From: an uncultured Verrucomicrobiota bacterium
Lineage (GTDB): Bacteria > Verrucomicrobiota > Kiritimatiellia > CAIQIC01 > Lenti-01
Assembly (NCBI GenBank): GCA_964510645.1
Contig: CAZECJ010000001.1
Span: 6,628-70,627, forward strand
Length of the DNA stretch: 64,000 nt
Direction of reading: 5' to 3'
Shown: positions 29,401 to 32,400 of the stretch, piece after piece
Numbering within the stretch: position 1 is the first letter of the stretch
Layout: the number at the start of each line of letters is the position of its first letter
Notes under the pieces: generated by a model
Database searches by the model: none
What the model was told of the DNA's origin: nothing
Seen by the model: the letters and a program-made list of their open reading frames with translations, nothing else
Translations under genes and position numbers: made by a program

Positions 29401-32400
29401 TCCGCCGTTCGATGAATTTCCTGGGCAACGGCCGCTTGACCGTGGAAGCGCAGGCGCGCCACCACCTGAAATCCTGGACGGTGATGGGCTGGATCAAGCC
29501 CTCCGAATCCCTCGCGGGCGACAGCATCATCGTCCGCCGGACGGTGCAATCCTCCAACCTGCAGTTCGACGGCGGCGACCTCGTCAACTACGAACTGGGC
29601 CTGCACGAAGTGGGGCCGGGCTTCTTCGCCCCCTACGTGCGCCACGTCGGCGTGACGACGTCGGGCGACGGCCTGGCGACGAACGTGCCGGTCGAATCGC
29701 TGGTCAGCAGCGTCAACGACACCAACAGCGTGAACGAGACCTCGGGCGGCCACCAGGCGGCCGGACTCATCGTGGCGGATGAATGGACGCACGTCGCGGG
29801 CACCTATGATTCCGAAGCGCATACGATGAGCCTGTTCATCAACGGCGAGCTGTCGGTCTATCGCAACGACGTGTTCCCGCCCAGCGGCATGAGCCTCGGC
29901 ACCGACAAGAAGGTGCTCGGCGACCTGACCATCGGCGGCGGCCGGAAGGAAGCCAACCTCGTCGAACTGCCCTTCGCGGGCTGGATGGACGACGTCAAGG
30001 TGCTGGATGGCGCGGCCAGCCAGGACCAGATCCAATACGAGGCGTCCAAGCAGATCTCCACGACGCTCCAGACGATCAACCTGGCGGTGGATCCCGAAGT
30101 CCGCCAGCTCCCGATCGCCGAGGCGCTGCAATACGAGCACACCAACAACTTCGTGCTGGTGCGCTTCAAGGCCGGCTCGACCGATTCGACCGTCGCGGGC
30201 GTCGCGTCGACCCTGGGCCTGAACGTGGCGCATTCGTTCAAGATCGCGCCGATCCACCGGATGCAACTGGCGGCGGGCGACGACCTCGCCGCGAAGTTGA
30301 AAGAATTGCGCGCGGATCCGAACGTGCTCTATGCCGAGCCGGATTACGTGGTGCGCGCCGACCGCACGCCGAACGATCCGATGTTCATCCGCCAGTGGGG
30401 GCTCCAGAACGCCTCCCTGCCTTCGGCCGACATCGGCGCGGTCGAAGCCTGGAACCAGGCGACGGGCAGCCGGGACGTCATCGTCGCGGTGATCGACACC
30501 GGCGTGGACTACACCCATCCGGATCTGGCCGACAACATGTGGGTCAACGCGGGCGAAATTCCGGACAACAATCTCGACGACGACGGCAACGGCTACGTCG
30601 ATGACGTCCACGGCTGGGACTTCAGCACCTACGACGCCCTGCTGGGCCTGCCGGCCAACGACCCGATGGACTACAACGGCCACGGCACGCACGTGGCGGG
30701 CATCATCGGCGCCGTCGGCAACAACAACCAGGGCGTGGCCGGCGTGAACTGGAAAGTCAAGATCATGCCGATCAGCTTCCTGGGCTACTTCGGCATGGGC
30801 TTCACGTCCGACGCCATCCTGGCCTTGGAATACGCCTGGCAGAACGGCGCGCGCCTGAGCAACAACAGCTGGGGCGGCGGCGCCTACAGCCAGGCGCTGC
30901 ACGACGCCATCCAGATGGCCGGCGCGAAGGGCCATCTGTTCGTGGCCGCGGCGGGCAATTCGGGCACGGACAACGACCTGATTCCGCATTATCCCAGCAG
31001 CTACGACATCCCCTACGTCGTGGCCGTCGCGGCGTCGGACATGAGCGACCAGCTGGCGGACTTCAGCTGCTACGGCGCGGCATCGGTGGACTTGGCCGCG
31101 CCGGGCGCGGGCATTCTCAGCACATGGCCGGGCAGCCAGTACGTCAGCCTCGACGGCACCTCGATGGCGACGCCGTTCGTGTCGGGCGCGGCGGCGCTGC
31201 TGCTGAGCCAGGACACCATGCTGGATCCGCTCGGCGTCAAGCGGGTGCTGTTGCAGTCCGTCGATGCGCTGGATTCCCTGGCCGACAAGGTCGTCAGCGG
31301 CGGCCGCCTGAACCTGGCCAAGGTCGTGGGCGGCAGCCCCGTCCTGAACTTCCGGTTCGACGACGGCGGCGCCTGGGCCGAAGACTTCACCGTGGCGACG
31401 GATTGGAACAGCGCGCTGAACGGCTTCAGCAAGCCGTGGTTCCATGCCGCCGTGCGCGACAACGCCCTCTTCTCGACGAACACCTTCGTGCCGATCTTCG
31501 AAGACTCGGACACCGACGGCATGCCGGATTGGTGGGAAGAGGCCATGGGCCTCGATCCGCTGTCGGCCTCGGGCTTGAACGGCGCCGAAGGCGATCCGGA
31601 CGGCGACGGCCTGACGAACTTCTATGAATTCCTGGCCGGAACGAATCCGTACGATTCCGACACGAACCACGACGCCATCACCGACTTCAACGCCGATTCC
31701 GACGGCGACGGCCTGAGCAACGGCCAGGAGCAGCAGGCCGGCACTTTGCCGGGTTCGGAATGGCTGGGCGACCGGGTGGATCCGGCCGATACGGACGACG
31801 ACGGCGAGAAGGACGCCGCCGAAATCGCGGCGGGAACCGATCCCCTGAAGGCGACGTCTCCCGACCGCGCCCGCGCGATGCGGTTCAGCGGCAGCGGCCA
31901 GCTCGTGATTCCGACCGAGCATGCCGCCGATGCGAGCTTGCCGTGGACGGTCGAGGCTTGGGTCAAGCCGGTGGGCACGGGCACGAGCGGTCTCGTGATC
32001 CGCCGCGCCGAAAAGATCCAGGAGAACGGCCAGCCGTGGGTCGACTATGAACTGGGATTGGCCTCGGCCATTCCATACGTTTCCTACGCCTTCCGCGCGG
32101 AAGACGGCTACGTCGTCGTGCGCCTGAATGCGCCCGCCAGCCTGCCGATGAACGAATGGTCGCATCTGGCCGCCGTGCGCGATCCCGGCACGATGCAGAC
32201 CCGCCTGTTCGTGAACGGCAAGTGCGTGGCCACGGAAGCGGATGCCCGCTTGCCCGCCACCTCCTTGCGCGGCGTCTTCGAGACCACCATCGGCACCGGC
32301 TGGATCGGCGAAATCGATGCCGTCCGCGTCTGGAGCTACGCCCGCACCGGCGTGGAGGTCCAGAACGCCCGCGGCGTCTTGCTGCCGGAAGCCAACCTCG

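Follow-up and report, generated by a model that had tools for sequence, protein, structure and literature searches.

The window analysed here is a 64,000-nucleotide stretch of contig CAZECJ010000001.1 (assembly GCA_964510645.1) from an uncultured Verrucomicrobiota bacterium of the Kiritimatiellia, and it contains a giant gene whose product carries a subtilisin-family (S8) protease in the middle of the chain (Table 1). The frame can be read from a GTG; the public record starts it at ATG 23454, which gives a protein of 4,532 residues, and a segment resembling a Sec-type signal peptide follows the ATG at 23538. Apparent hydrophobic leaders also open the complete orthologues. When the protein was searched against Pfam, both entire and as ten overlapping pieces, at least six Laminin_G_3 (LamG_3) domains and more than 11 bacterial TSP3 repeats were identified, lying on both sides of the protease, and one DUF2793 domain. 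The first-pass annotation of this DNA had placed the protease about 2,200 residues from the N-terminus with LamG/TSP3 cassettes on either side, and this is indeed the arrangement: a LamG_3 domain precedes the module, and TSP3 repeats (residues 2761-2777) and a further LamG_3 domain follow it.

Table 1. Features of the giant gene, of other genes in the window and of the equivalent slot in related loci. Positions are those of the window unless a locus (L) is named.
Feature	Position	Strand	Residues	Basis or remark
Giant open reading frame, from GTG	23415..37052	+	4,545 codons	13.6 kb frame
Sec-type signal-peptide-like N-terminus, MQKSAKRNTWAAGSFLGLALLAAAVFAPAAQA	23538..23633	+	42-73	read from the sequence
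LamG_3 just upstream of the protease module	29436..30035	+	2008-2207	PF13385, E 2.7e-14
Linker from LamG to prodomain, without hydrophobic leader	30036..30134	+	~33 residues	sequence
Fervidolysin-type prodomain	30135..30344	+	2241-2310	PF22148 (Fervidolysin_NPro-like)
YAEPDY motif, conserved end of prodomain	30330-30347	+		kept in orthologues and free-standing S8 proteases
Predicted pro/mature junction, YVVRAD/RT	30345..30368	+	2311-2318	predicted by homology
S8A subtilase catalytic domain	30369..31334	+	~2319-2640	PF00082, 3vv3 alignment, AlphaFold2
Pfam core, Peptidase_S8	30471-31271	+	2353-2619	PF00082, E 6.5e-56, 190 bits (cut-off 21.8)
Catalytic Asp, DTG motif	30495..30497	+	2361	alignment
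Catalytic His, HGTH motif	30681..30683	+	2423	alignment
Oxyanion-hole Asn, NNSWGG motif	30861..30863	+	2483	alignment
Catalytic Ser, codon TCG, GTSMATP motif	31161..31163	+	2583	alignment
Conserved post-module cassette, VLNFRFDDGGAWAEDFT ... DGMPDWWE, with TSP3 repeats	31341..31754	+	2643-2780	common to S8-, C1- and M10-type relatives
Next LamG_3	31890..32363	+	2826-2983	Pfam
Predicted lipoprotein, lipobox ITGC, Thr-rich C-terminus	37174..38151	+	325 residues	directly downstream of the giant gene
CBM48, GH13 alpha-amylase catalytic domain, Alpha-amylase_C, P_proprotein, Big_9/cadherin-like	45332..48655	+	1,107 residues	Pfam
P_proprotein of the GH13 protein	47594-47935	+	755-868	PF01483, E 1.1e-11
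Peptidase_C1 (papain family)	L025:10445-12610			E 4.8e-49
Peptidase_C1 (papain family)	L031:544-2634			E 6.5e-50
Peptidase_M10 (matrixin)	L027:10412-12877			E 3.8e-41
Peptidase_M10 (matrixin)	L029:7570-9867			E 4e-32
Peptidase_M10 (matrixin)	L038:5978-8356			E 4e-41

The annotation had also claimed a complete Asp/His/Asn/Ser set within the module and had named the codon of the serine. Both claims hold. D2361, H2423, N2483 and S2583 all lie within the Pfam match and are in register in a residue-by-residue alignment with deseasin MCP-01 (PDB 3vv3, E 1.3e-89), with no misalignment at any of the four, and the serine codon is exactly the one named. The catalytic domain also contains a calcium loop, DDDGNGYVDD. 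The PF22148 prodomain ahead of it scores 28.8 bits in the whole protein and 35.9 bits when the region is searched alone (cut-off 21), and presumably acts as intramolecular chaperone and inhibitor. The crystal chain of deseasin MCP-01 begins opposite residue 2316 in the alignment, and the junction has the layout seen in free-standing, self-processing relatives. Judged from its sequence, the module is almost certainly an intact S8A subtilase with its own prodomain.

Two AlphaFold2 models (from alignments of 64 and 87 sequences, each followed by a Foldseek search) gave predicted local distance difference test scores of 90.8 and 93.7. In both, DSSP assigns the prodomain a β-α-β-β-α-β order of elements (E-H-E-E-H-E), predicted with scores of 95-98. 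The prodomain had been described as I9-like. The protease does have its own prodomain and the predicted fold is of the I9 type, but the family is PF22148; Inhibitor_I9 (PF05922) gave no match in the prodomain even at E<=10, and that family assignment was rejected. The modelled catalytic domain superimposes on 3vv3 with a template modelling (TM) score of 0.93 and a root-mean-square deviation of 1.5 Å at 51% identity, and on thermitase with a TM score of 0.94-0.95; in the models it has the subtilisin α/β fold.

The best sequence and fold matches of the module are deseasin, then thermitase, SUB1 and the classic subtilisins. From these matches and the DTG motif we place the module in subfamily S8A, and its catalytic domain reads as the ordinary degradative type. 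The features of S8B (kexin/furin) are missing: the motif is DTG rather than DDG, no P-domain follows the catalytic domain, and neither the 60 best sequence matches listed nor the 50 best by fold include a kexin or furin structure. P_proprotein (PF01483) gave no match anywhere in the giant protein, whole or in pieces. The first-pass annotation was correct that a P-domain is absent behind the protease and present in the GH13 protein of the window, but not in treating this as an anomaly. S8A enzymes do not require a P-domain, and since the module is S8A its absence is unremarkable. We considered a functional link between the protease and the P_proprotein domain of the GH13 protein and found no support for it, since an S8A enzyme needs none and the intervening genes are unrelated; there are four of these, one on the opposite strand, and they include MatE (opposite strand), HIT and 7TM-HD genes. 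The P_proprotein and Big_9/cadherin-like domains are an unusual tail for a glycogen/pullulan-type enzyme.

Relatives were sought by a GTDB scan, one genome per species, with residues 2101-2800 as query, and by taking residues 2001-3150 exhaustively through 1.84 billion cluster representatives with HMMER. In the species scan, 17 loci (L001-L014, L019, L036 and L040) matched the whole LamG-prodomain-S8-TSP3 block, all of them metagenome-assembled genomes labelled Kiritimatiellia, Verrucomicrobiota, Lentisphaerae/Lentisphaeria or Victivallales. Their open reading frames are between 3,800 and over 7,600 residues long, many ending at locus edges, and the catalytic serine lies 1,380-4,100 residues from the start of the frame. 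By these matches the giant protein belongs to a family of the PVC (Planctomycetes-Verrucomicrobia-Chlamydiae) group that spans Kiritimatiellia, Lentisphaeria/Victivallales and other Verrucomicrobiota. The collinear orthologues L005, L002 and L003 are 86%, 63% and 57% identical to the window protein over the full length and 89%, 84% and 69% identical in the S8 part, above the full-length average; for that part, the ratio of nonsynonymous to synonymous substitution rates (dN/dS) comes to 0.21 with L005 and 0.11 with L002, which indicates purifying selection. No aligned giant relative has lost any of the four catalytic residues or the YAEPNY end of the prodomain, and the catalytic triad motifs are conserved in the 21 related giant or large proteins aligned. 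The conserved tetrad, the dN/dS of 0.1-0.2 and the presence of C1 and M10 proteases in relatives (see below) support a working protease.

As far as sequence matches can tell, an internal S8 with its prodomain is widespread in large proteins. The S8 domain lies more than 500 residues from the N-terminus in 53 of the first 100 cluster representatives matched by HMMER, and the prodomain is aligned in 42 of these 53. The best 120 word-index matches to the module alone are pre-pro subtilases of about 390-820 residues with 46-58% identity, none of them a giant; the giant relatives surfaced only through the genome scan and the exhaustive search. A rough neighbour-joining tree of S8 cores, weak in its deep branches, groups the giant modules into two clusters, one of the window clade with L001-L005 and one of Lentisphaeria/Victivallales type. 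An insertion of 8-11 residues between the calcium loop and the catalytic histidine, DALLGLPA in the window protein (30633-30656, residues 2407-2414), is limited to the former and found neither in the Lentisphaeria/Victivallales-type giants nor in free-standing relatives. Three gammaproteobacterial loci (L017, L028 and L078, including Alteromonas sp. ASW11-130) encode proteins of 2,450-2,750 residues in which the pre-pro-S8 is N-terminal, as is conventional, and TSP3 repeats and PQQ-like β-propellers or PKD domains come after it; their C-termini are Gly-rich, then hydrophobic, then basic, and look like a GlyGly-CTERM/rhombosortase signal.

Other proteases came to light when the region between the flanks was translated in loci that matched only the flanks of the query. 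The Peptidase_C1 and Peptidase_M10 domains of L025, L031, L027, L029 and L038 (Table 1) have intact catalytic motifs and, as with the S8 of the window, a LamG_3 domain before them and an RFDDGG...EDF[TS]...DGMPDWWE cassette after them. Further cases are L026 (C1), L033 and L044 (M10) and the cluster representatives P0181, P0199, P0220 and P0234 (M10); L038 carries two M10 modules, with motifs at residues 2518 and 4860 of its frame. The complete proteins of L025 (C1, 4,482 residues) and L027 (M10, 4,459 residues) align collinearly with the window protein before and after the slot (30-39% identity), and positional equivalence of the slot across the S8, C1 and M10 types is probable. From its repeats the scaffold is best described as a series of [FDDGG-TSP3-LamG] cassettes with variable payload modules, and in those proteins most closely related to that of the window the payload is, by domain match, a protease. 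Since C1 or M10 domains lie at the matching position in related giants, the mid-chain protease looks like a designed payload and not an accident. We also asked whether the M10 modules are preceded by a homologue of the S8 prodomain, and rejected this as BLASTP found no similarity (E 9.3) and PF22148 did not match.

Other inserts occur between cassettes. In the window protein DUF2793 (28041-28271, residues 1543-1619, E 1e-18) sits right behind an earlier LamG domain as a payload-like inter-cassette insert. In P0124 (5,555 residues) a choice-of-anchor L domain (NF038133, E 8e-34) occupies about residues 1650-1940, just before an RFDDGG cassette, and P0194 has a β-rich module at an inter-cassette junction.

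The gene directly downstream of the giant gene encodes a predicted lipoprotein that has no Pfam or NCBIfam match. Homologues lie directly downstream in the S8-type loci L005, L002, L003 and L008, in the C1-type L025, in the M10-type L027 and L029, and also in L043; in L019 (S8 type) the homologue is about 1.6 kb downstream. Since it directly follows the giant gene in loci of all three types, the lipoprotein is a probable partner of the giant protein, and may serve as its anchor or as a partner of another kind. The last ~90 residues of the giant protein (36780-37049) form a small C-terminal domain ending ...DPDMDGRFNLRIRTR, with comparable endings in L002 (DGRLNVRIRSQ) and L003 (DGRMMLRIESP), and more distant relatives end in FYRV-like strands. 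This region matched no family and no toxin family and is conserved among the orthologues; it may be a sorting or anchoring signal. The giant gene otherwise has housekeeping genes as neighbours. Elsewhere in the window, a sensor histidine kinase of 1,435 residues (10379-14686, minus strand) carries seven or more PAS domains ahead of its HisKA_3 and HATPase_c domains.

The giant gene is real. An identical protein of 4,532 residues is present in the public collection and shares a cluster (>=90% identity) with five others of 4,510-4,519 residues, which come from independent assemblies with contigs of up to 229 kb; the gene is intact in all six independent assemblies. Its DNA is found in bioreactor and wastewater metagenomes. 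In four metatranscriptomes, low-depth contigs align along the gene with 92-99% identity; those covering the S8 region, where 30579-30981 falls within the domain, reach 95-99%. We take these as weak support for expression, since such runs can contain DNA. Between 23600 and 36600 these contigs show many apparent joints, with sides of only ~20 nucleotides, that link different TSP3-repeat positions, and they look like cross-matches of the TSP3 motif and not real rearrangements.

In subtilases the prodomain folds the catalytic domain, after which its C-terminal tail lies in the active site and is cut. Here the pro/mature junction lies mid-chain, so that the same cut would necessarily split the precursor in two. 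We suggest, as the reading that is on balance probable, that the module is a functional zymogen-type S8A cassette, that the giant protein in which two LamG/TSP3 cassettes enclose it is a calcium-binding surface protein exported by Sec, and that the module cleaves itself and then acts as a tethered protease. Following the mechanism of the S8 family, the prodomain would chaperone folding of the catalytic domain after export, and the enzyme would then cut its own junction near residues 2311-2318. This would yield an N-terminal LamG/TSP3 fragment of ~2,250 residues that ends in the prodomain and a C-terminal fragment of ~2,230 residues that begins with the protease. Until degradation of the prodomain, its non-covalent complex with the enzyme would hold the halves together; thereafter the C-terminal fragment would be an active, broad-specificity protease tethered to lectin-like LamG domains and calcium-binding TSP3 repeats; its targets would be extracellular protein or glycoprotein substrates near the cell. 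The first-pass annotation had set out cis-autoprocessing and a tethered protease as alternatives. Both are consistent with the data, and since S8 zymogens must cut their junction, which is mid-chain here, they are probably consecutive steps of one mechanism.

Several observations weigh against this proposal. The pro-forms of PvSUB1 (4tr2), subtilisin E (3whi) and Tk-subtilisin (2z2z) align full-length with both AlphaFold2 models only at a root-mean-square deviation of ~25 Å, so the modelled prodomain does not appear to occupy its canonical position over the active site. The slots are equated through cassettes that are repetitive and 30-39% identical. At inter-cassette junctions some relatives have a module other than a protease, or no insert, and by these comparisons the protease is one of several possible payloads. 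No cultured organism with a PVC-type gene is among the loci found.

That the architecture is an artefact, with an adjacent LamG-protein gene and pre-pro-S8 gene fused by sequencing or assembly error, draws some plausibility from the gammaproteobacterial proteins that have a conventional N-terminal pre-pro-S8 and then a TSP3-rich tail (L017, L028 and L078). The 13.6 kb frame, however, is unbroken by any stop codon or frame change, there is no signal-peptide-like segment ahead of the prodomain, the GC content at third codon positions is uniform at 0.86 over the frame (neighbouring genes are likewise high), and the identical architecture recurs in the six independent assemblies and in 17 species. 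We therefore rejected the artefact, which is barely credible. A module that is never cleaved, whether a protease that stays latent or is permanently inhibited or a binding module retained for structural reasons, would fit the apparently non-canonical placement of the prodomain in the models. We consider it very improbable: the tetrad is conserved in all 17 or more giant orthologues with dN/dS of 0.1-0.2, and the C1 and M10 relatives keep their catalytic motifs too. Pseudo-subtilases such as CspC lose triad residues, and the CspC_non_triad model, with a cut-off of 675 bits, gives a negligible score of 19.8 bits here.

A stronger competitor is a dedicated releasing or processing peptidase whose main or only substrate is the giant protein itself, cut at several inter-cassette linkers to free LamG/TSP3 fragments, in the manner of the MARTX cysteine protease domain or the releasing peptidases of polymorphic toxins. 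The swap of catalytic class between S8, C1 and M10 at one position is the pattern of releasing peptidases, for which only the cut matters (Zhang et al. 2012, PMC3482391), and S8 and C39 domains have been proposed in this role in giant Omnitrophota proteins (bioRxiv 10.1101/2023.11.21.568195). The catalytic domain is nevertheless nearest to broad-specificity degradative enzymes (deseasin MCP-01 at 51%, thermitase, subtilisins) and not to proteases specialised in processing; the orthologues share a conserved C-terminus, with no variable toxin; the downstream gene encodes a conserved lipoprotein and not an immunity-type protein; and the neighbourhood is one of housekeeping genes. We judge a dedicated releasing peptidase rather unlikely, and the polymorphic-toxin reading as such was rejected on the absence of a toxin domain, the conserved C-terminus and the downstream lipoprotein. 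More speculatively, the LamG/TSP3 giants and the lipoprotein could form a modular PVC surface system in which the mid-chain S8, M10 or C1 zymogen cassette is a self-cutting clasp, a trigger such as calcium or substrate freeing the halves and activating the protease. Halves of ~2,200 residues would then be joined only by the prodomain-enzyme complex, a logic comparable to control by GAIN domains or furin prodomains. To our knowledge no protease-based latch of this type has been described in bacteria, and we regard the clasp as distinctly unlikely.

Giant secreted proteins are common in PVC bacteria, and the present family offers a concrete handle on their function and maturation. If the junction is cut as our preferred self-cleaving reading would have it, one gene would give rise to two very large surface proteins or to a tethered protease. 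It would also provide a rule for reading other giant open reading frames, as an internal pro-S8 is found in dozens more large-protein clusters. In the wastewater and bioreactor habitat, a surface protease with lectin-like domains would bear on how extracellular polymers and glycoproteins are degraded.

That a very large secreted protein can contain a protease is, in principle, already known. The nearest sequence relatives of the module are the fervidolysin-type pro-subtilases (PF22148 with PF00082), which share its prodomain family and YAEPNY junction at 46-58% identity; in these the pro-S8 lies directly behind a signal peptide, and there are no giants among the best 120 matches. Deseasin MCP-01 has the conventional pre-pro organisation, with P_proprotein and PKD domains behind the catalytic domain. 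This S8A collagenolytic enzyme of Pseudoalteromonas sp. SM9913 (PMC6606773, PMC5691207; PDB 3vv3) resembles the module in its 51% identical catalytic domain, the calcium loop DDDGNGY[IV]DD and the catalytic motifs. The module of the window differs in lying ~2,240 residues from the N-terminus, with LamG/TSP3 cassettes after it; P_proprotein and PKD are both absent from the giant protein, which thus does not have the deseasin-like multidomain collagenolytic architecture. The S8 precursor WprA of Bacillus subtilis offers a parallel: processing gives a stable N-terminal product and a C-terminal protease (CWBP23 and CWBP52), both retained at the cell surface, but its N-terminal part is ~23 kDa compared to ~240 kDa in the giant protein. 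In the tetrabrachion-STABLE complex of Staphylothermus marinus a long stalk at the surface bears a protease of the subtilisin family; STABLE, however, is a separate polypeptide bound to the stalk non-covalently.

Subtilisin is listed among the processing or releasing proteases of polymorphic toxins (Zhang et al. 2012, PMC3482391). These peptidases, like the cysteine protease domains of MARTX and large clostridial toxins, lie inside very large secreted proteins and belong to interchangeable classes. The window protein differs from them in that a variable C-terminal toxin, an immunity gene and RHS/FilH repeats are all missing, and it keeps a full zymogen prodomain. Giant Omnitrophota proteins with C39 domains and with S8 domains, the latter described as N-terminal, have been proposed to cleave themselves into smaller products (West-Roberts et al. 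2023, bioRxiv 10.1101/2023.11.21.568195). They too are giant proteins of the PVC group with subtilisin-family domains, but are membrane-anchored 'Archaeovorins' with glycosyl hydrolase and transferase content, unlike the LamG/TSP3 scaffold and mid-chain pro-S8 described here. Literature searches on the family found no description that combines a mid-chain zymogen pro-S8 in a LamG/TSP3 PVC scaffold, M10 or C1 at the equivalent slot and the lipoprotein gene. What is new, as far as the aligned loci show, is the occurrence of Peptidase_C1 or Peptidase_M10 at the equivalent inter-cassette position in collinear relatives, with the lipoprotein downstream of all three types. Compared with these known systems the case is unsurprising in kind, yet it is a clean and testable one for the maturation of giant bacterial proteins.

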